In this document: in pieces, positions 13,441 to 28,213 of the stretch
Numbering within the stretch: the first letter of the stretch is position 1
Layout: each line of letters opens with the position of its first letter
Assembly: GCF_001644705.1 (NCBI RefSeq)
Contig: NZ_CP015137.1
Span: 4,887,834-4,919,833 of the forward strand
DNA: 32,000 bases
Direction of reading: 5' to 3'
DNA from: Dickeya solani IPO 2222
GTDB lineage: Bacteria > Pseudomonadota > Gammaproteobacteria > Enterobacterales > Enterobacteriaceae
Position numbers and translations under genes: made by a program
The notes under the pieces: generated by a model
What the model was told of the DNA's origin: nothing
Seen by the model: the letters and a program-made list of their open reading frames with translations, nothing else
Database searches by the model: none

Positions 13441-16071
13441 ATGCATAACCAAACGCCGATGACACCAACTGAAGCCAACGTCAAAACCCGGCGACGCCTG
13501 TCGCCATTCTGGCTGCTTCCTTTTATCGCCCTGCTGATCGCCGGCTGGCTGCTCTACACCAACCAGCAGGAACGCGGCGCGACGGTGACCATCGATTTCG
13601 TGTCGGCGGACGGTATCGTCCCCGGCCGCACGCCGGTGCGCTATCAGGGCGTCGAGATCGGCACCGTGCGCAACATTAAACTCAGCGATGATTTGCGCAC
13701 CATTCAGGTTATCGCCAGCATTCGCAACGACATGAAAGAGGCGCTGCGCAGCGGCACCCAGTTCTGGCTGGTCACCCCCAAAGCGTCGCTGGCAGGCGTA
13801 TCCGGTCTGGATGCGCTGGTCGGCGGCAACTACATCGGCATGCTGCCCGGCGGCGGCGACCCCGTCAGTCACTTCACCGCCCAGGACACGCAGCCCAAAT
13901 ACCGCGTTAACAGCGGCGAATTGATGATACATCTGCGCGCCGACGATCTGGGCTCGCTGAACGCCGGTTCGCTGGTCTATTTTCGTAAAATGCCGGTAGG
14001 GAAAGTCTACGATTACAGCATCAACCCCGATCACAACGGTGTGATGATCGATGTGTTGATCGACCGCCGTTTTACCGGGCTGGTGAAAAAGAACAGTCGT
14101 TTCTGGAACGTGTCCGGGCTAAAAGCCGACGTCAGCCTCAGCGGCGCGACCGTCGAAATGCAGAACCTGTCCACGCTGGTCAACGGCGCCATCGCGTTCG
14201 ACTCACCTGAGCAGGGGGAAGCGGCCGCCGCCGACCAGAATTACGCCCTGTACCCGGACCTGGCGAGCAGCCAGCGCGGCGTACAGATCACGCTGGATCT
14301 GCCTTCCGGCGATAAACTGCGGGCCGGGCATACGCCGCTGCTGTATCAGGGGCTGGAAGTGGGCACGCTGCAACGTATCGCGCTGGAGGCGGATCAGCGC
14401 GTCACCGGAGAGTTGATTGTCGACCCGTCGGTGGTGCCGCTGATGCGGGAAAACACCCGCATCGAACTGGCCGCGCCGCGTCTGTCGCTGAGCGACCTCA
14501 ACCTGCCTAGTCTGCTGGGCGGCACCACCCTGACGCTGATCCCCGGCGATGGCGAGCCGAAGCAGCATTTCACCGTGCCTGACGCCACCCAACAGCAGTT
14601 GCAGCAGCCCGGCGCGCTCACCGTTGAACTGACCGCCAGCCAGAGTTACGGCATCGACAGCGGCCAGCCGGTTATCCTGCACGGCGTGCAAATCGGCCGG
14701 ATTGTTCAGCGCGCGTTAACCGATAACGGCGTCAGTTTTACCGCCGTTATCGATCGTCAGTACCGTCATCTGTTGCATAAAGACAGTCAGTTCATCGCCA
14801 GCAGCCGGGTCAACGTCAAACTGGGACTGGACGGCGTTCAGGTTCTGGGCGCCAGCGCCCAGGAGTGGCTGAGCGGCGGCGTGACGGTGCTGCCGGGACG
14901 TACCGGCGACGCCCAACCGCGTTATCCGCTCTACAGCGATCGGGAAAAGGCCGGCGCCGGGATTCAGGGCGTTACCCCGCCCACCACCCTGACGCTGCTG
15001 ACCGACAGCCTGCCGGACATTCAGGAAGGCTCGGTGGTGCTGTACCGCAAGTTTCAGGTGGGTGAAATCACCCGTATTCGCCCGAAAGCCGATGCCTTCG
15101 AAATCGATGTGTATGTCCGGCCGGAATACCGCAACCTATTGACTGACAACAGTGTGTTCTGGGCGGAAGGCGGTGCGCGCGTGCAACTCAGCGGCGCCGG
15201 GCTGACCGTACAGGCCTCCCCGCTCAGCCGGGCGCTGAAAGGCGCCATCAGTTTCGATAATGTGGACGGCGCCGCCGACGTACAGGGCGGCAAACGTCCG
15301 TTATACAGCAATGAAACCGCCGCACGGGCAATTGGCAGTCGGATCACGTTGCGTACCTACGACGCCAGCAAACTCTCCGCCGGGATGCCGATTCGTTATC
15401 TCGGCATCGATATCGGTCAACTGGAATCGCTGAAACTGGCGGAACAGCGGGATGAAGTCTTGGTGCAGGCGGTACTGTACCCGGAATATGTCCGCAACTT
15501 CGCCCGCGCCGGCACCCGCTTCTCGGTAGTAACGCCCGAGATTTCCGCCGCCGGGGTCAACCATCTGGAGACCCTGATCCAGCCCTATATCAATGTCGAG
15601 GCGGGCAGTGGCGTGTTTACCCGCAGCTTTGAACTGCAAAAAGCCACCATTTCCGACTCCCGCTATCAGGATGGGCTGAATATCAGCGTTGATACCGCCG
15701 AAGCCGGGTCGTTACAGGTTGGCACCCCGGTGCTGTTCCGCGGGATTGAGGTCGGCACGGTGACAGGCCTGTCGCTTGGGTCCTTGTCCGACCGGGTATC
15801 GGTGGCGCTACGCATCAGCAAACGCCACGCCCATCTGGTGCGCGACAATTCGGTGTTCTGGCTGGCCTCCGGCTATAACCTGCAGTTTGGCCTGACCGGC
15901 GGCGTGATCAAAAGCGGAACCTTCCAGCAATTTATCCGCGGCGGCATCGCTTTCGCCACGCCGCCGGCTACCCCGCTTTCGCCCGCGGCGCAGGCCGGCA
16001 AACATTTCCTGCTGCACGGCGAAGAGCCTGGCGGCTGGCGCGACTGGGGAACCGCGCTGCCGGAACGATAG
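13441..16071 (+). CDS. letB: Multi-MCE-domain envelope-spanning lipid tunnel protein LetB (YebT)
   Basis: 876 aa with an N-terminal TM and repeated MCE-like modules. The size matches E. coli YebT. Synteny is yebS-yebT-yebU. Confidence 0.88.
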   Translation: MHNQTPMTPTEANVKTRRRLSPFWLLPFIALLIAGWLLYTNQQERGATVTIDFVSADGIVPGRTPVRYQGVEIGTVRNIKLSDDLRTIQVIASIRNDMKEALRSGTQFWLVTPKASLAGVSGLDALVGGNYIGMLPGGGDPVSHFTAQDTQPKYRVNSGELMIHLRADDLGSLNAGSLVYFRKMPVGKVYDYSINPDHNGVMIDVLIDRRFTGLVKKNSRFWNVSGLKADVSLSGATVEMQNLSTLVNGAIAFDSPEQGEAAAADQNYALYPDLASSQRGVQITLDLPSGDKLRAGHTPLLYQGLEVGTLQRIALEADQRVTGELIVDPSVVPLMRENTRIELAAPRLSLSDLNLPSLLGGTTLTLIPGDGEPKQHFTVPDATQQQLQQPGALTVELTASQSYGIDSGQPVILHGVQIGRIVQRALTDNGVSFTAVIDRQYRHLLHKDSQFIASSRVNVKLGLDGVQVLGASAQEWLSGGVTVLPGRTGDAQPRYPLYSDREKAGAGIQGVTPPTTLTLLTDSLPDIQEGSVVLYRKFQVGEITRIRPKADAFEIDVYVRPEYRNLLTDNSVFWAEGGARVQLSGAGLTVQASPLSRALKGAISFDNVDGAADVQGGKRPLYSNETAARAIGSRITLRTYDASKLSAGMPIRYLGIDIGQLESLKLAEQRDEVLVQAVLYPEYVRNFARAGTRFSVVTPEISAAGVNHLETLIQPYINVEAGSGVFTRSFELQKATISDSRYQDGLNISVDTAEAGSLQVGTPVLFRGIEVGTVTGLSLGSLSDRVSVALRISKRHAHLVRDNSVFWLASGYNLQFGLTGGVIKSGTFQQFIRGGIAFATPPATPLSPAAQAGKHFLLHGEEPGGWRDWGTALPER

Positions 16072-16083
16072 GCGTCATACCAG

Positions 16084-16111
16084 CGACTCACCGGCCGATA
16101 CCGGTGAGTCG
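16084..16111 (+). terminator. Hairpin after letB
   Basis: CGACTCACCGG, loop ccgata, CCGGTGAGTCG (11-bp stem). The T-tract is weak. Confidence 0.4.
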
Positions 16112-16180
16112 TCATCCCTTCCGGCGGTCGAGATATGGTAAGATTCGCGTCCTGATTGTAGCTGTAACGGAACCGTTTCT

Positions 16181-17629
16181 GTGGCCAAACCTATTCCCGC
16201 CTCTCTCACCTCTGATTTTCTGACCGCCATGCAAGCCATCATGCCCGCGCACCTGAGCATGGACGCATTCATCGACGCCTGCCAGCGGCCGCTGCGACGC
16301 AGCATCCGCGTTAACACCCTGAAAATCAGCGTGTCCGACTTTCTCGCGCTGGTCGCGCCCTACGGCTGGGAGCTGGAAGCCGTGCCCTGGTGCGATGAAG
16401 GATTCTGGCTGCTGAACGCGGATGAGGAAGCCATGCGGCTGGGCAACGCGCTGGAGCATCTGGCCGGCCTGTTCTACATTCAGGAAGCCAGTTCGATGTT
16501 GCCGGTCAGCGCGCTGTTCATGGGGGATGACGCCCCAGAGCGGGTGCTGGACATGGCGGCCGCCCCCGGTTCCAAAACCACCCAGATCGCCGCCCGGCTC
16601 AACAATCAGGGATTGATTGTCGCCAACGAATATTCCGCCAGCCGGGTCAAGGTACTACACGCCAACCTGCACCGTTGCGGGGTCAGCAATACCGCCCTGA
16701 CGCATTTTGACGGCCGGGTATTCGGCAACGCCCTGCCGGAAACGTTTGACGCCATCCTGCTGGACGCGCCCTGCTCCGGGGAAGGCGTGGTCAGAAAAGA
16801 TCCCGCCGCCATGAGTCACTGGTCGCTGGAGAGCATCGCCGATATCGCGGCGACCCAGCGCGAGCTGATCCTGAGCGCTTTTCATGCACTAAAACCGGGC
16901 GGCGTGCTGATTTATTCCACCTGCACCCTGAATCATCAGGAGAACCAGCATGTTTGCCGCTGGCTGATGCAGCAGTTCCCCGACGCCTGCGAGATCGAAT
17001 CGCTGCAGGATTTGTTCCCGCAAGCACAGCGCGCCATCACCGAAGACGGTTTTTTGCACGTCTTCCCGCAGATTTACGACAGCGAAGGCTTTTTTGTGGC
17101 GCGCCTGCGTAAAACCGCCAGCGTACCGCCGCTGGCGGCGCCGGATTACAAACTCGGCAAGCTGCCGTTTACCCCCCTCAGCCACAAGGATGCGCAGCTG
17201 ATTCGACAAAGCGCGCAGCGGCTGGGCCTGCAGTGGTCGGAACAACAGTTACAGTTATGGCAGCGGGACGATGAAGTCTGGTTATTTCCGGCGGCCTTGC
17301 AGCCGATGCTGGGCAAAATGCGCTTCTCCCGTATGGGCGTCAAACTGGCGGAGCGCTTTGCCAAAGGGTATCGCTGGCAGCATGAAGCCGTTGTGGCGCT
17401 GGGCAATCCTGACAACCCAAACACCTACCCGCTCAGTGCGGAGCAGGTCGTCGACTGGTTTCGCGGCAAAGACATTTATCCGCCTTCGCCCGTCAATCAC
17501 GACGAAGTTCTGCTGACCTGGCAACAGACCACGCTGGGATTGACCAAGCGTGTCGGTCAGCGTCTGAAAAACACCCTGCCTCGCGATCTGGTTCGCGATG
17601 GCGCCAACCTTATTCCCTCTATCGGATAA
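16181..17629 (+). CDS. rsmF: 16S rRNA m5C1407 methyltransferase RsmF (YebU)
   Basis: 482 aa with a GTG start. The start is supported by alignment with E. coli RsmF (…[10 protein letters not shown]...[16 protein letters not shown]). SAM-binding motifs are [10 protein letters not shown] and DAPCSGEG. Confidence 0.9.
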
Positions 17630-17633
17630 TCTT

Positions 17634-17673
17634 TGACCGGGTCGTCGCACAGGGCGTTCCCGGTCCGTTTTTT
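17634..17673 (+). terminator. Rho-independent terminator after rsmF
   Basis: GACCGGG ... CCCGGTC, followed by CGTTTTTTT. Confidence 0.6.
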
Positions 17674-17728
17674 TCATCTACACTCACAATCAAGGCGTGG
17701 CATCAACATTCAACCTGTTGAGGAATCT

Positions 17729-17920
17729 ATGTTCGCACTGGTGATCTTTGTCTGTTACCTGGGAGGTAACTGCGAGAGTCTGGTCGCGGGAACCTATATC
17801 AACGAACCACAGTGTCTGGGTGCCATGGAGGAACAGCAAATCCGTAACGGCGGCTGTTTTCCGGTTGACGATTTTCGCAGCGGGTACTGGAAACCGGCTC
17901 GCGAGTATCGTGACCGCTAA
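17729..17920 (+). CDS. yebW: YebW-like small protein (DUF1482)
   Basis: I chose the internal ATG at 17729 with GAGGAA upstream. The 63 aa MFALVIFVCYLGGNCE...GGCFPVDDF resemble E. coli YebW (MFALVLFVCYLDGGCE...). Confidence 0.75.
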   Translation: MFALVIFVCYLGGNCESLVAGTYINEPQCLGAMEEQQIRNGGCFPVDDFRSGYWKPAREYRDR

Positions 17921-18054
17921 TCGCTGCGGTCATTCTTTCCATTTACAACCGTCACCATCTTTACAACCACAACCTTTATAACGATAACCGTTGCAACCAA
18001 TGGCAGGCAACGCCATTACAGCGACGTTGCCCAAGCAAGGTGACGGCGCTATGG

Positions 18055-20046
18055 CTAGAATCTCATCCATTCCCCTTCAGCGGGAGGATGGCGTGCGGAG
18101 TCAGTCGGTTTGTCGCCCACGCCTTTTCTGAACGTCGGTTTCTTGCCGTGATGACCCGGTTTACCCAGCAACAACGCCGGGCTGACGGACGTTCCCCCCG
18201 ACGCGTGAGCATCGTCGCCTAAATGAAACGCCGATACCGCCTGCGCCAGTATCCGCGACTGTTCCTCAAGCGAATTGGCCGCCGATGACGACTCTTCCAC
18301 CAGCGCCGCGTTTTGCTGGGTCGTGGTGTCCAACTCCGACACCGCCTGAGCAATCTGGGATATTCCCCGGCTTTGCTCATCCGAAGCCGAGGCGATTTCC
18401 CCCATGATGTCAAATACATGGGCTACCGAGCTGACAATATCCTGCATGGTTTTTCCCGCCTCCCCCACCAGCGCTGAACCGGTATCGACCCGTGACACCG
18501 ACTCATGAATCAACCCTTCGATTTCCCGTGCGGCCTGGGCGCTGCGCTGCGCCAGATTGCGCACCTCGCTGGCGACTACCGCGAATCCACGGCCTTGTTC
18601 GCCGGCTCTCGCCGCTTCAACCGCCGCATTCAGCGCCAAGATATTGGTCTGAAAAGCGATACTGTTGATAACCGTCGTAATATCAGAAATGCGTTTGGAA
18701 CTGCTGGAAATGTCGTCCATGGTCTTCACCACGTTATTGACGATTTCACCGCCCTTGACCGCATTCTGCGACGCTTCCGACGCCAGTTGCGACGCATGGT
18801 GGGCGTTTTCGGAGTTCTGTTTCACCGTCGAGGTCAACTGCTCCATGCTGGCGGCCGTTTCCACCACCGCCGCCGATTGCTGTTCGGTACGGGACGAGAG
18901 GTCGGTATTACCCGCCGCGATTTCCGCCGATGCGGACTCGACATGGCTCACCCCTTCGCGGATATCCCGGATCATGGTGCGCAGCTTGTCATTCATGTTG
19001 CCCATCGCGGTGAGCAACTGCCCCAGCTCGTCGCGACGCGTCGTACTGACCACAGATGAAAGATCGCCACTGGCAATCCGCTCCGCCACCGACAGGCTTA
19101 GTTTTAGCGGGACAATCAATTGCACCGAAATACGCCACGCCATGATGATACCCAGCAGGATCACGGACAGACCGGTCGCCACCATGTTGAATTCCGATGA
19201 CTGGGTAGTTTGATTGGAATTAGCCAGTTGTTGATTGAACAGACTGCCGACATCCGTATTCAGTTTTTCCGCCGCCTCGGTCATTGCCTGACTGGCGCGG
19301 GTTTCATCCTTAAAGGCGGCCAGATAGGCCGGCGCAGAACGGCGGTAGCCTGCGAAATAATCCCAGGCGGTATTCAGCCATGCCTGCTGTTCCGCCGACA
19401 ACCGCCCGGCTTTTTCCCTGATGGCGGCTTCGGTAGCATCAATGTTTTTAAGGGTCACGCCCAGCGTATTATCCGAGGGTCCCAGCAGCAGATCATGCGC
19501 TACGTCGCGAATATCCGCCATGTTCTCGCCCAATTGATACAACAGCACCTGAATATCCGACGACACGCCCGCGACCTGCTGCCATTTATTATGGAACGCT
19601 TCCAGCGCGCTGCCGCTTTCATCCTGACCAATAGCCAAACCGGCAGCATCCCGCTTTTTACTGGCGGCGATGAATGCCTCCCGCGTGACCCGATACGATT
19701 TCAGGTCCTCCTCAATTTGGTTCACATCGTTAATCGCCTCCTTATCCCAATGTAGCGTCTTAGCCTGCCTGAGAATGTCGTCCATCTTATTAATCAGCTC
19801 GCCGTTTTTATCGATCAAGCGGTAATCATGCGTGAGCTGAAATTGCGTGCGCAGGAGACGGGCCTGCGCCAATGTGGCGTTGAGTTGATTGCTCGCCAGC
19901 GCCTTATCGTTATTATCCGCCACACTGCGGAATCCAATAACCCCGGAAATCAACACCACCAACGACAATAACAAAACCGAACCAAAACCTAATGACAGTT
20001 TGGTTCCCAGTTTAAGGTTTTCGTATTTTCCACCCAGAATATTCAT
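18055..20046 (-). CDS. Methyl-accepting chemotaxis protein with a large periplasmic sensor and a C-terminal xWxxF pentapeptide
   Basis: Start chosen at M9 ([14 protein letters not shown]). The order is TM1, a periplasmic region of roughly 250-270 aa, TM2, HAMP and the conserved signalling hairpin ([32 protein letters not shown]). A long flexible tail ends in EWMRF. Confidence 0.9.
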
Positions 20047-20550
20047 AGAATCACCATTTATGGCTCTCATAGAGTGAACGTCATTCCATGTATATCAATG
20101 ACATATCATGATAAATTACATATCGCTATTTAATAATTGCAAAGGTAATCAACATCCTTTTTTTATTGCTATCCTGCCGCCAAAAACCTATCGATGCGTT
20201 AAAAAAATCTATTGATGCGTATAAAACTCAATTCAGCAAAAAGTAGAAATAATGAATATCCGGATGCTTGATACCGTCTCGCACGATTAAAAGAACAAAT
20301 AAATCATGTGATTATGAATCAATTGAAACACCATTAAGAATGGTGAGAGAAAAACGATTTACGCTGATTATCAGGATTTTAGTTAACCGTTTTAATCCCT
20401 CATAATCTATATATCATCCTTCCAATAATAGAAAGATATATAATGCAAGGGTATAAGAACCCCCGCTGATCTATCATGACTGGATATTTCGATGAAAATA
20501 AATAGGTCGTTATCAATGACGGGAAGACAGAATAAACATCGGGATAATAT

Positions 20551-20640: not shown

Positions 20641-21510
20641 TCAGAAGCTGGGGGTTAGCGTCAGCACCACCACACCGCGCGGCGTGACCTCATCCACCCC
20701 ACACTGGAATTGCGAACCGCCGCCTTCGACCTGCATTTTACGCCCCGGCAACAGCGCCACATCGTAGATATCGCTCTTGCCGTCGATATCCAGCAACCAG
20801 CGACCATTGCTGATACTGGTAATGCCGGTATCCACCAGCCAGGAAGACGAACTCCCTTCAACCAGCAAAGGCGCATGTAATCCCGCAGGGATAAACTGCG
20901 GATCCGCCTTCCACTCCCCCGCATCCTGCAGCTTTCCGGTTTTCAACAGATTACGCGGGATCAGGCATATGCCGCTGTCATCATGACGACTGACGGGCAC
21001 GTCATTCTGCTGCGGCGAACCTTTACCGGTTGCCAGCCACGCCAGCGACACGCCGGTATCCAGCGCGCAGGTGACCACCACATCCCCGGGAAAGAAATCA
21101 CGACGAATCCAGGTGCTGATCGTACCGGGCGCGATGCCCAGCAGATCGCCCAACTCTTTTTGCGTGCTGAAGCCATAGGCATCAAGCATGCGGCGCAGCA
21201 CAGCCTTGCCGCCCGATGACAGAATCTGCTCATAAAGCGCTTTGCCTTTCAGCGGCGATTTATGCGTAAAAACATTCGCATTTGCGAACTCTCCGGTGAC
21301 CAGCCATCCGGCATCTGCTCCGGTATCAAGCGCGCACTTCAAAATAATATTACCCGGCACGTTCCCTCGCTGAACCCAGTTACTGATTGTGTTGGTAGGT
21401 ATCTCAGTGACCTCGCTCAGTTCCTTCTGAGTCTTTACTCCGTAGCTTGACATGATGCGCTCAAGCACGAAGGCCGCAGACACGGCATTACTATTTGTAT
21501 TCAAAAACAC
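20641..21510 (-). CDS. cI: Phage 186-type CI repressor with a tandemly duplicated N-terminal HTH domain
   Basis: 289 aa with a GTG start. Residues ~15-75 and ~104-164 are paralogous. Segment 1 is VLERIMSSYGVKTQKEL...ISNW...CALDTGADAGWLVTG. Segment 2 is VLRRMLDAYGFSTQKEL...ISTW...CALDTGVSLAWLATG. Both resemble the 186 CI N-terminal domain as I recall it, and a ~115 aa C-terminal domain follows. Confidence 0.8.
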   Translation of the reverse strand: MFLNTNSNAVSAAFVLERIMSSYGVKTQKELSEVTEIPTNTISNWVQRGNVPGNIILKCALDTGADAGWLVTGEFANANVFTHKSPLKGKALYEQILSSGGKAVLRRMLDAYGFSTQKELGDLLGIAPGTISTWIRRDFFPGDVVVTCALDTGVSLAWLATGKGSPQQNDVPVSRHDDSGICLIPRNLLKTGKLQDAGEWKADPQFIPAGLHAPLLVEGSSSSWLVDTGITSISNGRWLLDIDGKSDIYDVALLPGRKMQVEGGGSQFQCGVDEVTPRGVVVLTLTPSF

Positions 21511-21607: not shown

Positions 21608-22078
21608 ATGTCGGACGAGATTTCAATTCTATCGCGCATTTCTGAGGAAAATCCTACATCAACGAGTCCATCCGTTGAGACAGAAACCGGCTTTTCGGCC
21701 GTCAATCGACGGCCTCATGCTATACCTGACCAAGCGTCGGTTTCTTTCACCGGCTTGCGCAACACGGTCTACGCCGCTGCGCCGGCATCCGAGGTGCGGC
21801 GTGCGGCATGCCACATAAGGAAACAGCATGTCCGGCTTGCCTGTATCACGCCTCAACGCGATTTTGCAAATGCAAAAACGGTCTTCGCCACCGTAACGAC
21901 AACAGCCCGGTTTTCCCACCTCATCGCTGTCTATACGCTACCGGAGCGGCACAGTCGTTCTACCGTTGTGAATGGCGACAATGATTTTAACGCAAAATTC
22001 GGAAAATCGAATTCTGGTTATATTCTGCTCGGGTTTCCGCAGGCTGCCGGCCACGATGGCAAACGAGCGTTATCATGA
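21608..22078 (+). CDS. Hypothetical protein, first ORF of the early rightward operon (occupies the Cox/Apl position but is not recognisably related)
   Basis: 156 aa. GGGGGAG lies upstream of the ATG, and an ATGA overlap couples it to the next ORF. Codon usage is mixed and I recognise no motif. Confidence 0.4.
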   Translation: MSDEISILSRISEENPTSTSPSVETETGFSAVNRRPHAIPDQASVSFTGLRNTVYAAAPASEVRRAACHIRKQHVRLACITPQRDFANAKTVFATVTTTARFSHLIAVYTLPERHSRSTVVNGDNDFNAKFGKSNSGYILLGFPQAAGHDGKRALS

Positions 22079-22605
22079 AGCCCCATTATGCCTTTACCGC
22101 CGACCATCTGCAGACCCTGCCGCCCAATTTGCGGGCGCTGATCGGAAAACACTTCGCGGATTCGCGCTGGGCGCAGACCTGCGTTTTTTACCGGCGGCTC
22201 TCCGAACGCTATCGCCGCACGCTGTGTTTTCATGCTGCACTGCACCATCGCTGGTGCGTCTATCAACTGGAAGAGATGGATGAAATGGCGCGTGAAAGAA
22301 TTGTCAGCGCACTGAATGAACTGCGTAGCGCATTCGGCTTGCCGGAAAAACAGGCGCAGAGCCAGTTGCTGCTCTCGGTTCGGGTCCTCACCCTCAGCGA
22401 GCGCCGCACGCTGTTTTTCCATGCCGGGCTCTCGACCCAGGAATTCGATCAACCCTTGCGACGCATTGACGAGTCGGATTGCCAGTGGGCGAAAGCGCTT
22501 AACCGCGCCCTCGGTGAGCTGCACCACCTGTTTGCCGAGGCGCCCGACATTCTGACCAGTATCAGACCCGAGCACTATTTCAGACCCGAACCCTATTCTC
22601 GTTGA
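22075..22605 (+). CDS. Hypothetical early protein with two internal LSER-R-TL-FHA-L repeats (possible tandem sigma70-r4/LuxR-like HTH)
   Basis: 176 aa. Its position corresponds to P2 B or 186 cII/fil/dhr. The repeats are RRLSERYRRTLCFHAAL and LTLSERRTLFFHAGLSTQEF. Confidence 0.6.
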   Translation: MKPHYAFTADHLQTLPPNLRALIGKHFADSRWAQTCVFYRRLSERYRRTLCFHAALHHRWCVYQLEEMDEMARERIVSALNELRSAFGLPEKQAQSQLLLSVRVLTLSERRTLFFHAGLSTQEFDQPLRRIDESDCQWAKALNRALGELHHLFAEAPDILTSIRPEHYFRPEPYSR

Positions 22606-23257: not shown

Positions 23258-25384
23258 ATGACGTCCGACAACGCTGAAAAAAACGCCGACAACCGTGGCA
23301 ACCGCTGGGTATACCCGTGGAATGCGCCCCGCCCCGCCATTCTGCCCGAATCCAGCGTATTGTCTTCGGATACCTTGCAGCAGGGTCAGGCGGTACTGTA
23401 TCGGCTGGCGTTGCTGCCGCGTTTTCTGGCCGGTCATTTCCGCCGCCGCTTCGACTATCTGAAGCAGCAGCAGGGGCTGGGCGCCGCGTTCAGCTATCTG
23501 TTATCGGTGGTTCAGCGGCGGCTCTGGCCGCGAATCGACGCCGTCAACGCCCGCTACCGAATGAATACGGCCTTATCTTCCCACTTCATCAGCGAAGCGG
23601 AACAGTATCACCAGTTGCCGGATATGCCGGACAAGGTTCTGCGCGCGTTTGCGAGCCGCATCGCCGCCCACATGAACGATGCCTACCATGCCCACTGCGA
23701 ACGCTATCTGCAGGAATGCCCCGGCGATCATCAGGCGGAGCTATTCAGTGATGAAACACAAGCGCGTATCTACGGTCAGCTAGCCACACTGGCACAAGCC
23801 GTGAACGTGACGCCCGCCCACTGGCATCGCCATCAAAACGGGACACTCACGCTGGAACAGGCATGTGCCGGCATTATGCGGCTGGTCACCCCCCGATGGT
23901 GGGAGCGTCAGTTGAAAATTCAGCGAACCCGCTGGCGTGAGGCATTGTGGATTGCCAGCGGCGAGGTAAGCCGGGCCGCATCTCCCTTTCTCAGCCGCCA
24001 GGCGCTGCAGGATATCCGCTACCGCCGTCTGGCGACGCTGGATTTTCTGAAAAGTCGCGAGCTGGAAAATACCCGTAACGGCGAGCGGGTCGATTTGATC
24101 GATAAAGTCATGGGCAGTATCGCTAATCCGGATATTCGCCGTATGGAACTGATGACCATGTTGGCGGGTATTGAGCGTTACGCTACCGCACACCAGCACA
24201 TCGGTATGCTGGTGACGTTCACTGCCCCCGGCCACTATCATCCCACCCGTACCCGCGGCCATGACCGGGTATTGGTCAACACCGGATGGATGCCGGATTG
24301 CCCTTCGCCCAAAATGACCCAGCATTATCTGGTCAAGTTATGGGGAAAAATCCGCACCGCGCTCAAAGACCGTAAACTGCAAATCTACGGGTTACGAGTC
24401 GTTGAACCCCATCACGACGGCACGCCGCACTGGCACATGATGCTGTATTGCGAACGCGCACAGCGTCAGGCGATCGTCGACATCCTGCGCCGCTATGCCC
24501 AGCCAAATGAAAGCGACCGTGCCGCGGCGCATAACCGCCGGTTTGACTGCAAGCACATCAATAAAGGCGGCGCGGCGGCATACGTCGCCAAATACATCGC
24601 CAAAAATATCGATGGCTATGCGCTGGATGGCGAAGCAGACCACGAAACCGGAAAACCGCTGAAAGACATGGCCGCCTCCGCCTCGGCCTGGGCCTCGATC
24701 TGGCGCATTCCTCAATTCCATTTCATCGGGTTGCCCACGGTTGGCGCGTACCGCGAATGTCGACGCATTCGCAGCCGCTCATTACAGGATGCGCTGGGCG
24801 AACAGGCCGAAACGGTGAGATTCGCCGCGGATCGCGGTGACTTCGCGGCGTATATCGAGGCGCAGGGCGGCGCGAATGTCGCCCGGCAACACCAGTCGGT
24901 TCGTGTCGCCAGAGCCGCCAGCGAACGGCTGAACGCCTACGATGAAACGATTGTGCGTACCGTCGGTATTTTTTCCGCCCAGCGCGGCCGCGAGCGAGTA
25001 TTCACCACCCGACCGGATGAATGGCAAATCGTGGCCAAAAACCATGCCGGCGGCGATGTCGCCGATCGCCATCGTTCTGCTCTGCCTTGGAGTTCTGTCA
25101 ATAACTGTGGGGGCGTGCTTTCACCCGACGCACTCCCTTATCCATTTCGCGATATTCCCCGCGTTCCTTCAGCGCGGCTAACCTATTTTCAGCGAGATCG
25201 ACTGGCGTCGTTGCGCCCCCGCCTCAGTCAGCAAGGTATTGATACCTCACGCTGGGAACGGGAGGCACTGGTGCGCGGCGCCAAAGTGAAGATTGACGGC
25301 CAACTGATTGATGAATTTAAGAATAAAGCTATATCCGCCGTTGATGAAAAGCGCATCATGAGCACACAGGTGCTGCACTTATGA
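23258..25384 (+). CDS. A: P2 gpA-type replication initiation endonuclease (rolling circle, HUH)
   Basis: 708 aa. It has LRVVEPHHDGTPHWHMML (the HUH region) and AAYVAKYIAKNIDGYALDG (catalytic Tyr pair). It appears collinear with P2 gpA along its length, as I recall that sequence. Confidence 0.92.
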   Translation: MTSDNAEKNADNRGNRWVYPWNAPRPAILPESSVLSSDTLQQGQAVLYRLALLPRFLAGHFRRRFDYLKQQQGLGAAFSYLLSVVQRRLWPRIDAVNARYRMNTALSSHFISEAEQYHQLPDMPDKVLRAFASRIAAHMNDAYHAHCERYLQECPGDHQAELFSDETQARIYGQLATLAQAVNVTPAHWHRHQNGTLTLEQACAGIMRLVTPRWWERQLKIQRTRWREALWIASGEVSRAASPFLSRQALQDIRYRRLATLDFLKSRELENTRNGERVDLIDKVMGSIANPDIRRMELMTMLAGIERYATAHQHIGMLVTFTAPGHYHPTRTRGHDRVLVNTGWMPDCPSPKMTQHYLVKLWGKIRTALKDRKLQIYGLRVVEPHHDGTPHWHMMLYCERAQRQAIVDILRRYAQPNESDRAAAHNRRFDCKHINKGGAAAYVAKYIAKNIDGYALDGEADHETGKPLKDMAASASAWASIWRIPQFHFIGLPTVGAYRECRRIRSRSLQDALGEQAETVRFAADRGDFAAYIEAQGGANVARQHQSVRVARAASERLNAYDETIVRTVGIFSAQRGRERVFTTRPDEWQIVAKNHAGGDVADRHRSALPWSSVNNCGGVLSPDALPYPFRDIPRVPSARLTYFQRDRLASLRPRLSQQGIDTSRWEREALVRGAKVKIDGQLIDEFKNKAISAVDEKRIMSTQVLHL

Positions 25385-25385
25385 G

Positions 25386-25428
25386 TTGACGAATACTACT
25401 GAATAAAGTACTGTATATAAATACAGTC
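25386..25428 (+). promoter_or_regulatory. SOS-regulated promoter: TTGACG-N17-TACTGT overlapped by a LexA box
   Basis: TACTGTATATAAATACAGTC at 25409-25428 is an exact CTGT-N8-ACAG and matches the 20-bp E. coli consensus at 18 of 20 positions. The -35 hexamer is at 25386-91 and the -10 hexamer lies inside the box. Confidence 0.8.
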
Positions 25429-25447
25429 TCACAATGGAAGAGGTACC

Positions 25448-25669
25448 GTGGAACAGACTGAAAACCGAGAGCTGACCTTATCAAGGATTCGATTAATTGC
25501 CGATATGTCATTGATATCACAATGTGATCCTGAAGAAATGAAAATCGCCATGTCGTTGATCGCCGACTTATCTCACGGCGAACTCCCGGATAGTGATTAT
25601 CAACAGTTTCTGAAGAACAGCAGTGATGGACAGCAGCTTAAAGCATGGTTCGAACAACAAATGTTGTAA
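25448..25669 (+). CDS. Small acidic protein under the LexA box, a candidate Tum-like antirepressor
   Basis: 73 aa with a GTG start and GGAAGAGG upstream. It starts 20 bp downstream of the LexA box and occupies the same post-A position as 186 tum. I recognise no sequence similarity. Confidence 0.55.
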   Translation: MEQTENRELTLSRIRLIADMSLISQCDPEEMKIAMSLIADLSHGELPDSDYQQFLKNSSDGQQLKAWFEQQML

Positions 25670-25987
25670 GGGATTTCGATGGATAATAATGATCGACGTG
25701 AAATTCCCTGGCCGATCGCCAGAGGCACGTGCAAATTAATGGATTTTCTCTGTGGCTAACACGCCAGACTAATACGCAGCAAAACTTTTTCGTATCCAGA
25801 CCGCTCAATAAAAGGTCTGACCGGCCAAAGCCGGTATATACATTTTGGCATGAATTTTAATTCTGACTCAGTGCAAACCTGTTCGTTGGTCATGTTTTTC
25901 TCTTTAACACAGTGGTACGGAATTAGGGTACGCCCATGTAAAAACATCTGTGAGTAACATGCCCCGGTCTTCCCGGTACCTTTAATA

Positions 25988-26110
25988 CACAATATCCCCT
26001 GCCAGCAAGGATTGGCAGGGGTCACAATAATCTAGGATCACAATAAATAGGTGCCACAATAAGTCGGCGCCATGATAAGTCGTCGGCACAATAAGCAAGG
26101 GGCACCATAA
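25988..26110 (+). repeat. Left iteron array: seven copies of CACAATAA-like octamers
   Basis: Copies start at 25988 (CACAATAT), 26023, 26039, 26055, 26071 (CATGATAA), 26087 and 26103 (CACCATAA). The last six have an exact 16-bp period. A 9-bp-stem hairpin (25996-26021) separates copies 1 and 2. Confidence 0.9.
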
Positions 26111-26139
26111 ATAAACACCCTGACATCATTTTCCACCGG

Positions 26140-26238
26140 TTGTTGTGCTTCCTGTTGTTGTATTTCCTGTTGTTGTATTTCCAGTTGTTGTATTTCCAGT
26201 TGTTGTACTTCCTATATGTTGTGCCTCCTATTGTTGTG
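26140..26238 (+). repeat. Right iteron array: seven copies of TTGTTGTR, in inverted orientation relative to the left array
   Basis: Copies start at 26140, 26155, 26170, 26185, 26200, 26216 and 26231, a 15-bp period with one 16-bp step. The four central units are near-identical: TTGTTGTATTTCC(T/A)G. Confidence 0.9.
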
Positions 26239-26252
26239 CCATCCGTCCGACA
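26235..26252 (+). promoter_or_regulatory. TGT-N12-ACA dyad (P2 late-promoter activator-site pattern) upstream of gpX
   Basis: TGT is at 26235-37 and ACA at 26250-52. GATAAA at 26290-95 is a possible -10, which puts the dyad near -55 to -58. Confidence 0.35.
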
Positions 26253-26317
26253 CCTTCCCCGTATTGCGACCGCCATCGTTCCTCTGGAGGATAAAGGACC
26301 CGAGATAACCCGTTTTA

Positions 26318-26359
26318 CTCGATCTTTTTTATCTGAATCTCTCGATCTTTTTATCTGAA
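26318..26359 (+). repeat. Tandem ~20-bp direct repeat just upstream of gpX
   Basis: CTCGATCTTTTTTATCTGAA (26318-37) and CTCGATCTTTTTATCTGAA (26341-59). The second ends 14 bp before the X start codon. Confidence 0.85.
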
Positions 26360-26373
26360 CCTAAAGGTATCAT

Positions 26374-26577
26374 ATGAAAGTTTACGCCCATCAGGACGAC
26401 ACCCTGGACGCGCTCTGTTACCGCTATTACGGCCGCACGCAAGGCGTGGTGGAAACGGTTATGCTGTCCAATCAGGGGCTTGCGGATCTTGGCCCCATTC
26501 TGCCACACGGCACCGCCGTCACTTTGCCCGACATGAATGTTTCCGGCTCACAGGAAAGCGTCAATCTCTGGGAATAA
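26374..26577 (+). CDS. X: P2 gpX-like tail protein (LysM-like)
   Basis: 67 aa. MKVYAHQDDTLDALCYRYYGRTQGVVETVMLSNQGLADLG..LPHGTAVTLPD...VNLWE is nearly collinear with P2 gpX as I recall it. Confidence 0.88.
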   Translation: MKVYAHQDDTLDALCYRYYGRTQGVVETVMLSNQGLADLGPILPHGTAVTLPDMNVSGSQESVNLWE

Positions 26578-26652
26578 CTCCGGACTATCAGGCTCCATGC
26601 TCGCCTTCGGCCGATAATACATGGAGATCGCCGCCACACCAGGAACCTTATC

Positions 26653-27114
26653 ATGCAAAAACCACAAAGCCTCAAACTTGCACTGACCACCGCACTACCC
26701 GCGCTGGGCAATGCGTTACAGTTTCGGATCCAGGAGGGGGAAATCGCCGCGTTGCAGGAGCCGTCCCTGTCGTTTGAATACCGCTATCAGCTGCTGCTGA
26801 CGCTGAATAATTTCGCTGACAATCCCGACACCCTTTTTGTCACCCTGCTGCTATGGGTGCGCCAGAACCAGCCGGACTTGTTAACGCGTGAAAGCATCCG
26901 CAACAAAGGCATCAGCTTTACGATCGACAACAATGCGGACAACACCAGCACGCTGTCCGTTCGGCTCAACCTGACAGAGCGCAACCGAGTCAACGAACAG
27001 AATCAAACCCTGCAGGTACAGTATGAACCGGAGCCAACGCCGCCCGAACCGGTTAGCCGCCCTACGGCGCTGTATATCGCCGGCGAACTGGTCAGCCAGT
27101 GGAAAGGGAACTGA
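26653..27114 (+). CDS. R: P2 gpR-like tail completion protein
   Basis: 153 aa. Motifs shared with my recollection of P2 gpR are KP.SL..ALT, W(V/L)R.NQPD, LTER, PPEPV.RP and LYI.GELVS.W. Confidence 0.75.
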   Translation: MQKPQSLKLALTTALPALGNALQFRIQEGEIAALQEPSLSFEYRYQLLLTLNNFADNPDTLFVTLLLWVRQNQPDLLTRESIRNKGISFTIDNNADNTSTLSVRLNLTERNRVNEQNQTLQVQYEPEPTPPEPVSRPTALYIAGELVSQWKGN

Positions 27115-27448: not shown

Positions 27449-28213
27449 TTGGATAAAAGCCGAAGTTTGCCACGTAATATGCGAAAGGAATTATTCGATT
27501 TTAAACATTTCGGCAACAATGAGGGATTCCTTTATTACCCGAAAATCATGGAAGATATCCGTCCTTTTCTGCCTGAAAACACCATCGCCCATTACAGCGG
27601 TAATCGTGAAAAATCCAGAAAATTGCTTACTCTGTTCGGTGGTCATTTGGGTGACCCGTATTGCAGCCAGACTGCCGCTCCCAGCGCGTCACCGCAGCTC
27701 ACCAACATGTTCTCTTCCTACGGACAGCTGACGGCCAGAGCGGATTCGCCAACGCCGGTGTTTACCCAGCCCGATTTTCTGCTGCTGTATTGCCTGTGTG
27801 AAACGTCCGTCTTCAAGGTGCTGGTTGGCATTGCCAGTCTTCGCCATGTCATTCAACATCTGGACCGGCAAACCCGCACCGAATTATGCCTGCCGCAGTA
27901 TGCGCTGCGCCCCGGCGTCATCAGCCAGGAACACACACCGTTCAGTCTCCTCAGCGCTGACCACGACCCCTTTCTGACCTGTACGCCTGACCTGGCGTAT
28001 CCCCTGACCTCGCCCGCCAGATATGCGTTGCTGAAGCTCGACCCGCTGCTGAAAAACAGCATGCGATGGCTCAATCTGAAACGGGGCGATCTGCTCATTA
28101 TCGACAACCGCCGCAGTACCCACAACTGCGTGCCATTCACCCCGTTTTTCCGACAGGATTCACCTTACCTGATGCACATGTTCGTCAATAAACCGGACCC
28201 GACACGATACTGA
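27449..28213 (+). CDS. Clavaminate-synthase/TauD-like (Fe(II)/2OG dioxygenase fold) protein, possibly lacking the proximal metal ligands. It is inserted where gpS is expected.
   Basis: 254 aa with a TTG start and GGGAAA upstream. The C-terminal GDLLIIDNRRSTH...PF.P.F resembles the GDxxxxDNxRxxHGR signature of VioC/AsnO/TauD-type enzymes. PDFLLLYCLC resembles their PDxxxLxCL motif. I could not find a clear HxD/E upstream. About 330 bp of AT-rich DNA precedes it. Confidence 0.55.
   Translation: MDKSRSLPRNMRKELFDFKHFGNNEGFLYYPKIMEDIRPFLPENTIAHYSGNREKSRKLLTLFGGHLGDPYCSQTAAPSASPQLTNMFSSYGQLTARADSPTPVFTQPDFLLLYCLCETSVFKVLVGIASLRHVIQHLDRQTRTELCLPQYALRPGVISQEHTPFSLLSADHDPFLTCTPDLAYPLTSPARYALLKLDPLLKNSMRWLNLKRGDLLIIDNRRSTHNCVPFTPFFRQDSPYLMHMFVNKPDPTRY

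Follow-up and report, generated by a model that had tools for sequence, protein, structure and literature searches.

How could DNA damage reach the repressor of a phage-tail bacteriocin cluster when that repressor has no recognisable means of cleaving itself? The question is raised by a 32,000-nucleotide stretch of Dickeya solani IPO 2222 (contig NZ_CP015137.1, positions 4,887,834 to 4,919,833; hereafter the window, whose numbering is used throughout), which covers the left part, up to gene I, of a tailocin cluster of the type known as dickeyocin P2D1. Dickeya species are important soft-rot crop pathogens, and P2D1 is studied as an inter-strain weapon and as a possible biocontrol agent. The dickeyocin is induced by mitomycin C, fluoroquinolones (ciprofloxacin) and hydrogen peroxide, and its regulators and mechanisms are still to be elucidated according to a 2025 paper (PMC12297226); in the P2D1 papers searched we found no mention of a LexA box, Tum or an antirepressor. 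Directly after the phage gene A, the window carries a short open reading frame (ORF) of 73 amino acids (aa) behind a predicted LexA box, in the position that the antirepressor gene tum holds in coliphage 186. We consider it probable that, in the P2D1-type cluster, DNA damage leads by way of LexA cleavage to a TumA-type antirepressor, to inactivation of the CI repressor and so to expression of the tail genes.

The gene A ORF (gpA, 23258–25384; Pfam Phage_GPA, E = 4e-88; PHROG 91) ends in a TGA codon at 25382–25384, and the −35 hexamer TTGACG of a promoter read from the sequence (25386–25391, + strand) begins one base past it. After a 17-nt spacer follows the −10 hexamer TACTGT (25409–25414), which forms the 5′ arm, that is the first six bases, of the predicted LexA (SOS) box TACTGTATATAAATACAGTC (25409–25428, + strand). 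This site is a motif match that agrees with the E. coli LexA consensus TACTGTATATATATACAGTA at all but two of its 20 positions. In 100 dinucleotide-preserving shuffles, no site came within three mismatches of that consensus, and the box is the single occurrence of CTGT-N8-ACAG in the window, where 0.28 would be expected by chance. The near-consensus box overlapping a −10 after the gpA stop codon is thus present where the initial annotation of this DNA had placed it. A Shine–Dalgarno sequence, GAGG (25440–25443, + strand), is read directly 4 nt 5′ of a GTG start codon at 25448, with 19 bases between the end of the box and the start.

This arrangement closely follows that of phage 186. In the GenBank annotation of 186, the −10 of promoter p95 is the same TACTGT and coincides with the start of the LexA site, while tum begins with GTG 4 bases after its Shine–Dalgarno sequence (GGAGG-TTGT-GTG) and 18 nt after the box. 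Since the layout is shared with the annotated p95, the architecture here is that of p95-tum, with a better −35. A generic sigma-70 scan did not call the p95-like promoter, because TACTGT agrees with TATAAT at only three of six positions. An alternative ATG at 25435 opens a frame of only 13 codons that is not conserved in Lonsdalea, and it was rejected as the start.

A LexA box accompanies the homologous gene in every locus that we examined. Exactly one CTGT-N8-ACAG was found per locus in all 17 loci, always about 20–40 nt 5′ of the start codon. These comprise the window, phages 186, PSP3, vB_EcoM-613R3 and vB_YenM_31.17, eight loci from Dickeya and Lonsdalea, two of the type found in Serratia sp. 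ATCC 39006, and two complete prophages; a genome-contig scan gave only four loci, and the contexts came mainly from exact-protein look-ups. In the alignment of Dickeya and Lonsdalea DNA, the −35, the entire LexA box and the GTG are invariant, while the end of gene A and the leader have diverged. The TTGACG hexamer is also invariant in Serratia sp. ATCC 39006 and in the two complete prophages (loci L013 and L014). Motif match and conservation together predict that the 73-aa gene is under LexA control.

The gene itself (25448–25669, + strand, GTG to TAA) encodes a protein that, by homology, is of TumA type, corresponding to the antirepressor half of Tum without its DinI half. Residues 1–63 match PHROG 1993 (E = 1.8e-27), a family also matched by residues 1–61 of 186 Tum (E = 1e-22), by PSP3 TumA (E = 2.7e-32) and by gp14 of Yersinia phage vB_YenM_31.17 (E = 5e-26). 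A tblastn search against phage genomes recovered PSP3 tumA, annotated as "similar to 5' end 186 tum; UV induction of prophage", together with its orthologues in phages SEN1, SW9, SI22, Midge, RCIP0057 and 613R3. When a profile built from 31 family sequences was compared with 186 Tum using hhalign, residues 6–60 aligned to residues 6–60 in register (92.9% probability, E = 3.6e-7). When 1.8 billion representative proteins were searched exhaustively with a profile, 27 matched, among them PSP3-TumA-like proteins of 60–61 aa; all but one of the 27 are 46–109 aa long, and most are 57–79 aa. The core common to the family reads R(I/V)xxIAxxSxxxxCxxxExxxAxxLIxDL. A weak match to phrog_189 (E = 0.27) is confined to profile positions 6–46, where this mixed PHROG represents the N-terminal portion of Tum. 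The DNA of this region (25300–26100) had no match when searched against 50,697 phage records.

The missing half is the DinI part. The ORF has no match to the DinI family (PF06183) in Pfam, and the Pfam and NCBIfam searches returned nothing for it except a sub-threshold match to an EH domain. Tum has been described as an antirepressor fused to DinI, and in PSP3 the upstream of the two split genes carries the antirepressor activity; the DinI part is dispensable for antirepression (Lemire et al. 2011, PMC3121763). Because that study assigns antirepression to the N-terminal half, the window ORF is taken as a homologue of the active half rather than as a new family. Homologues 96–99% identical to it occur in D. 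solani, D. fangzhongdai and D. dianthicola, and more distant full-length 73-aa homologues are found in Musicola, Lonsdalea and Serratia sp. ATCC 39006 (CP025084). All of these are annotated as hypothetical proteins, because Pfam and NCBIfam have no model for the antirepressor half of Tum. That half constitutes a widespread family of 57–79-aa proteins for which neither database has a model.

Substitution patterns indicate that the ORF is a genuine gene. Nei–Gojobori ratios of nonsynonymous to synonymous substitution rates (dN/dS) were 0.05 for D. undicola, 0.13 for D. oryzae, 0.04 for D. dadantii and 0.12 for Serratia 39006, and with values of 0.04–0.13 the ORF is therefore a protein-coding gene under strong purifying selection. 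An AlphaFold2 model of the protein is all-helical, with a predicted local distance difference test (pLDDT) score of 77, and in it the core common to the family forms a high-confidence helical hairpin (residues 2–42) with a pLDDT of about 90. A Foldseek search of this model against the PDB gave no match with E below 1, which is uninformative for such a small helical protein, and searching the family profile against PDB sequences gave chance matches only.

The presumed target is encoded upstream on the opposite strand. The cI gene (289 codons, 20641–21510, − strand) encodes a protein with two Phage_CI_repr helix-turn-helix (HTH) domains (PF07022) and a Phage_CI_C domain (PF16452), and its residues 102–281 match the structure of 186 CI (2FJR) with E = 5.5e-23. 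A Peptidase_S24 self-cleavage domain was not found in this CI by Pfam; because it has no such domain, the repressor would be unable to sense RecA itself. The two-HTH layout had been called unusual. It is instead that of the PSP3/SEN1/SW9-type CIs, which are 51–56% identical to the window CI over 94–97% of its length; PSP3 CI (286 aa) is 56% identical over 94%. Two-HTH CIs were found in seven phages (PSP3, SEN1, SW9, SI22, Midge, RCIP0057 and 613R3), and these are the same seven that carry tumA. Similarly, the complete P2-like prophages L013 and L014 each pair a 287-aa CI with a Tum-like protein of 73 aa whose gene is preceded by a LexA box. From this pairing of partners, the 73-aa protein is predicted to act on the window CI. 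The product of Dda3937_03777 in D. dadantii 3937 is identical to the window CI at 287 of 288 positions. In a transposon sequencing (Tn-seq) study of 2026 (PMC13566846), this gene, described as a C1 repressor and the only repressor identified there, was the one gene within the dickeyocin region to be scored as essential.

A second indication that these two regulators belong together comes from Lonsdalea. In L. britannica and L. populi (L008, 2731–4222; L018, 4727–9035), an intact two-HTH CI (70% identity) is separated by about 400 bp from a tumA homologue that is itself intact and retains its complete LexA box. The pair lies between rsmF/DUF1482 and an smr or major facilitator superfamily (MFS) transporter gene, so that its chromosomal surroundings match those in Dickeya. 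All that is left of gene A is a short piece of its end, before the −35, and the early, replication and tail genes are gone; L. populi also retains an Ogr/Delta gene. As just these regulators were kept after all else was lost, we argue that CI and TumA work together. This regulatory skeleton may have been co-opted by the host.

The element around the gene is not an ordinary prophage. Ahead of cI lies a host gene for a methyl-accepting chemotaxis protein (MCP; chemoreceptor) at 18055–20070, with no integrase between the two, and the window element lacks genes for a portal, a terminase or a capsid: none of Q, P, O, N, M or L comes after gene A. Instead, the tumA-type gene is followed by a spacer of about 700 bp and then by X (26374), R (26653), a 254-aa ORF, V, W, J and I. 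The order MCP, cI, early genes, A, 73-aa ORF, X, R, V, W, J, I is identical in the window and in D. dadantii 3937 (L010, CP002038). In the latter genome, the 73-aa ORF is at 2,737,902–2,738,123 and so falls within the dickeyocin P2D1 cluster, published as 2,734,508–2,757,061 (PMC10719855). The 3937 protein, ADM98762.1, shares one 90%-identity cluster with the window ORF, and the 3937 cI gene begins at 2,733,074, which is the first coordinate of the Tn-seq "dickeyocin" region (PMC13566846). Judged by its gene content and order, the window element is a P2D1-type tailocin cluster, a domesticated relative of 186 and PSP3, and not a complete prophage.

Taken together, homology and architecture make the small LexA-box gene in the tum position most likely an SOS-triggered antirepressor acting on a 186-type CI, as the initial annotation had suggested. 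In an undamaged cell, host LexA bound to the box overlapping the −10 would keep the tumA-type gene off. Upon DNA damage, RecA would become active, LexA would cleave itself and the p95-like promoter would fire. The small helical TumA-type protein would then bind CI and block its binding to the operator, so that the early operon would be de-repressed and a P2-type late cascade would follow, leading to tail gene expression and tailocin particles. Such a chain would mirror the antirepressor mechanism of 186 (PMC7708051). In the P2-like prophage DuoHS of E. coli HS, deletion of tum or a lexA(Ind-) background blocks induction (PMC12055606). For the window cluster, LexA binding, SOS induction of the transcript, contact between TumA and CI, and the link to tailocin output are predicted by analogy with these systems.

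Several observations weigh against this account. Pairwise BLASTP of the ORF against 186 Tum finds no significant alignment, so the homology rests on intermediates and profiles; compared with PSP3 TumA, the ORF is 39.5% identical in the 43-residue stretch aligned by tblastn and about 30% identical across the whole multiple alignment. The C-terminal 18 residues, including an invariant Trp67, are specific to the Pectobacteriaceae clade. The DinI half, or a tumB, is absent, with no DinI match in Pfam or PHROG for the ORF, for a 26-codon ORF downstream or for an 89-aa ORF on the reverse strand. The −10 is weak and the promoter spacer is 19 nt in several homologous loci. The published P2D1 and Tn-seq papers make no mention of the 73-aa gene. 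Finally, tumA, X and R are co-oriented with no opposing gene between them, and the promoter could also, or instead, act by read-through.

This last point is the basis of an alternative in which loss of the capsid module placed the LexA promoter 5′ of X, R, V, W, J and I, so that direct transcription of the tail genes became its main role and the ORF became secondary. The hairpins 3′ of the ORF are not canonical terminators, a scan called no + strand terminator, and the annotation of 186 marks the first terminator past tum as no more than partial, all of which speaks for this alternative. Against it, the ORF and X are separated by a 700-bp spacer with two hairpins and variable repeats, and a sequence resembling a P2 late promoter (TGT-N12-ACA) lies about 120 nt 5′ of X. 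The ORF is under strong purifying selection, and box and ORF are kept together in the complete prophages, where opposite-strand capsid genes come next, and in Lonsdalea, where no tail genes come next. Moreover, the essentiality of CI implies that repression by CI governs the cluster. We consider read-through as the main role improbable. A tum-like gene and box that are mere leftovers of the ancestral prophage, with the dickeyocin induced in some other way, would suit an element that has decayed and is without an integrase, capsid genes or lysis genes between X and R. However, leftovers would hardly maintain a dN/dS of 0.04–0.13 across Dickeya and Serratia 39006, nor a box and −35 that are invariant while their flanks diverge; in addition, a CI without an S24 domain would need another SOS input, of which none is evident, and CI is still essential. 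This explanation seems to us very improbable.

There is also the view in the initial annotation that the ORF shows no resemblance to Tum and may represent a different antirepressor family acting on the unusual two-HTH CI. While the absence of a significant BLASTP alignment to 186 Tum and the lack of any matching Pfam or NCBIfam model are as this view would have it, PHROG 1993 unites the ORF with the N-terminal half of 186 Tum and with PSP3 TumA, tblastn reaches PSP3 tumA, and the hhalign result points the same way. The two-HTH CI is of the PSP3 type and co-occurs with tumA in seven phages. The homology evidence contradicts an unrelated family, to which we attach a negligible probability. The LexA–TumA–CI route remains the reading that we favour.

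Among characterised systems, phage 186 is alike in its LexA box overlapping a TACTGT −10, in the gene lying 3′ of A on the same strand with a GTG 4 nt after the Shine–Dalgarno sequence, and in the partner, a CI of the 186 family without a self-cleavage domain. It differs in several respects. Tum of 186 (146 aa) has a C-terminal DinI domain (Pfam, residues 87–145) and internal-start products, whereas the window protein has neither and carries the 18-residue clade-specific tail instead; the 186 CI has one HTH domain and the window CI two; and 186 is a complete phage in which orf97 follows tum, whereas the window element is incomplete. Salmonella phage PSP3 resembles the window in that its TumA is short (60 aa) and encoded on its own, with a LexA box, TACTGTATAAATATACAGTA, in front of the gene, and in its two-HTH CI. 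Here the differences are the DinI-like tumB immediately 3′ of tumA, for which the window has no counterpart, and the fact that PSP3 is a complete, integrating phage. Fels-2 has been grouped with the PSP3-type systems in the literature. The position after gene A is the same in 186, PSP3, 613R3 and the window.

The best phage match to the window protein is gp14 of vB_YenM_31.17 (64 aa, annotated as hypothetical; 43.6% identity over residues 8–62). As in the window, it stands alone with no DinI gene after it and has a LexA box, TACTGTACATAAATACAGTA, upstream. Unlike the window, vB_YenM_31.17 is a complete phage in which a regulator gene separates gp14 from gene A, and its CI appears to have a single HTH domain (a match in two pieces over 471 nt), compared with two in the window CI. 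Beyond the P2-like phages, PrtR, the repressor of R-type pyocins, is inactivated via RecA-stimulated cleavage and not by a LexA-controlled antirepressor, and the Listeria monocin antirepressor is an unrelated protein. By description only, the present cluster may be likened to the PrtR/PrtN system and to the monocin antirepressor as cases of SOS-linked release of a phage-tail bacteriocin from a CI-like repressor (PMC12297226; PMC9043618).

If the proposed route holds, it would be the likely missing link from DNA damage to dickeyocin production. The Tn-seq study established the essentiality of CI without such a route (PMC13566846), and the locus offers a concrete one from damage to CI. Deletion of the ORF or point mutation of the box should then yield uninducible or over-producing strains. 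A more ambitious form of the proposal, in which the TumA-type protein is the single SOS input for the dickeyocin, the system is the first LexA/antirepressor R-type tailocin described in Gram-negative bacteria and CI–TumA(–Ogr) has been co-opted in Lonsdalea as a host DNA-damage module, strikes us as rather unlikely as a whole.

Immediately downstream, 9 nt past the tumA stop codon, a 26-codon ORF (25679–25759, + strand) is present as first annotated; its status as a gene is uncertain, as it has no family match and its support is weak and confined to Dickeya. It is intact in most Dickeya loci and absent in Lonsdalea and in prophage L013, and in D. oryzae (L006) its stop codon is lost, the frame is extended and its middle is rewritten. 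Ratios of nonsynonymous to synonymous polymorphism (pN/pS) were 0.13 and 0.44 in frame compared with about 1 in the other two frames, from only a handful of substitutions. Within the ORF lies a hairpin, CTGGC-cgatc-GCCAG (25708–25722), whose counterpart in D. oryzae is CTGGTT-attt-AACCAG. Preservation of the stem despite the altered peptide suggests a conserved RNA or DNA structure, in place of the peptide or in addition to it.

Further downstream, two hairpins (CAGACC...GGTCTG, 25797–25819; ACCGGC-caaa-GCCGGT, 25820–25835) followed by ATATACATTTT form a possible leaky terminator (25797–25848, + strand). Both hairpins form in the minimum-free-energy fold as well as in the centroid fold. They are conserved among the Dickeya loci, and the second is followed by a T run in D. 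undicola. The hairpins noted earlier are thus real features of the locus; their suggested role in ending the transcript is less secure, as the terminator scan called no + strand terminator. A search of 25300–26450 against Rfam gave nothing. An 89-aa ORF on the reverse strand (25756–26025) has no family match and a terminator-like hairpin overlapping its start, and was rejected as a gene. The segment after A had also been flagged as a hotspot for accessory cargo; in the window, the tail genes X and R follow, and it is the complete prophages, with unknown genes after the tum-like gene, that fit this description instead.

The remainder of the spacer is rich in repeats. At 26039–26095 is a tandem array of about 3.6 copies of a 16-bp unit containing CACAATAA, with fewer units in D. 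dadantii 3937, and at 26139–26237 are about 6.5 copies of a 15-bp unit, GTTGTTGTAyTTCCn, which was not seen in the aligned spacers of other Dickeya loci. As the arrays differ between aligned loci, they are strain-variable. The late-promoter-like sequence mentioned above, TGTGCCATCCGTCCGACA (26235–26252), fits the TGT-N12-ACA of Ogr/B-dependent P2 late promoters, and D. undicola and Serratia 39006 have an exact match at the corresponding site, whereas D. dadantii 3937 does not. Immediately 5′ of the X start codon, a 22–23-bp unit, CTCGATCTTTTTTATCTGAA, is directly repeated at 26318–26362.

Elsewhere in the cluster, the first rightward early gene (21608–22078, 156 aa) has no Pfam or PHROG match. 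Its place is taken in 186 and PSP3 by apl/orf30 and cII; neither an Apl/Cox-like nor a CII-like (Phage_CP76) gene was detected anywhere in the cluster. The replication genes, a RepB-like gene (22075–22605) and A, are retained, which is odd for a tailocin. Late transcription in P2 is said to need replication, and this might be why they were kept. Between R and V, where P2 has S, the 254-aa ORF (27449–28213) has no Pfam match; its residues 87–254 match PHROG 18172, of unknown function (E = 7e-120), and it is conserved in D. dadantii (220–253 aa). In Dickeya, X is followed directly by R (26577–26653 in the window) with no lysis genes between them, and in the related capsid-less cluster of Serratia 39006 genes for a holin, a lysozyme, LysB and LysC lie between the two (L015, 9167–10421). 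In D. dadantii (L009–L012, approximately 15500–20222), phytase-like, MFS sugar transporter and smr genes interrupt the cluster after the first tail-fibre gene, and in one strain (L012) this host-like block is inverted.

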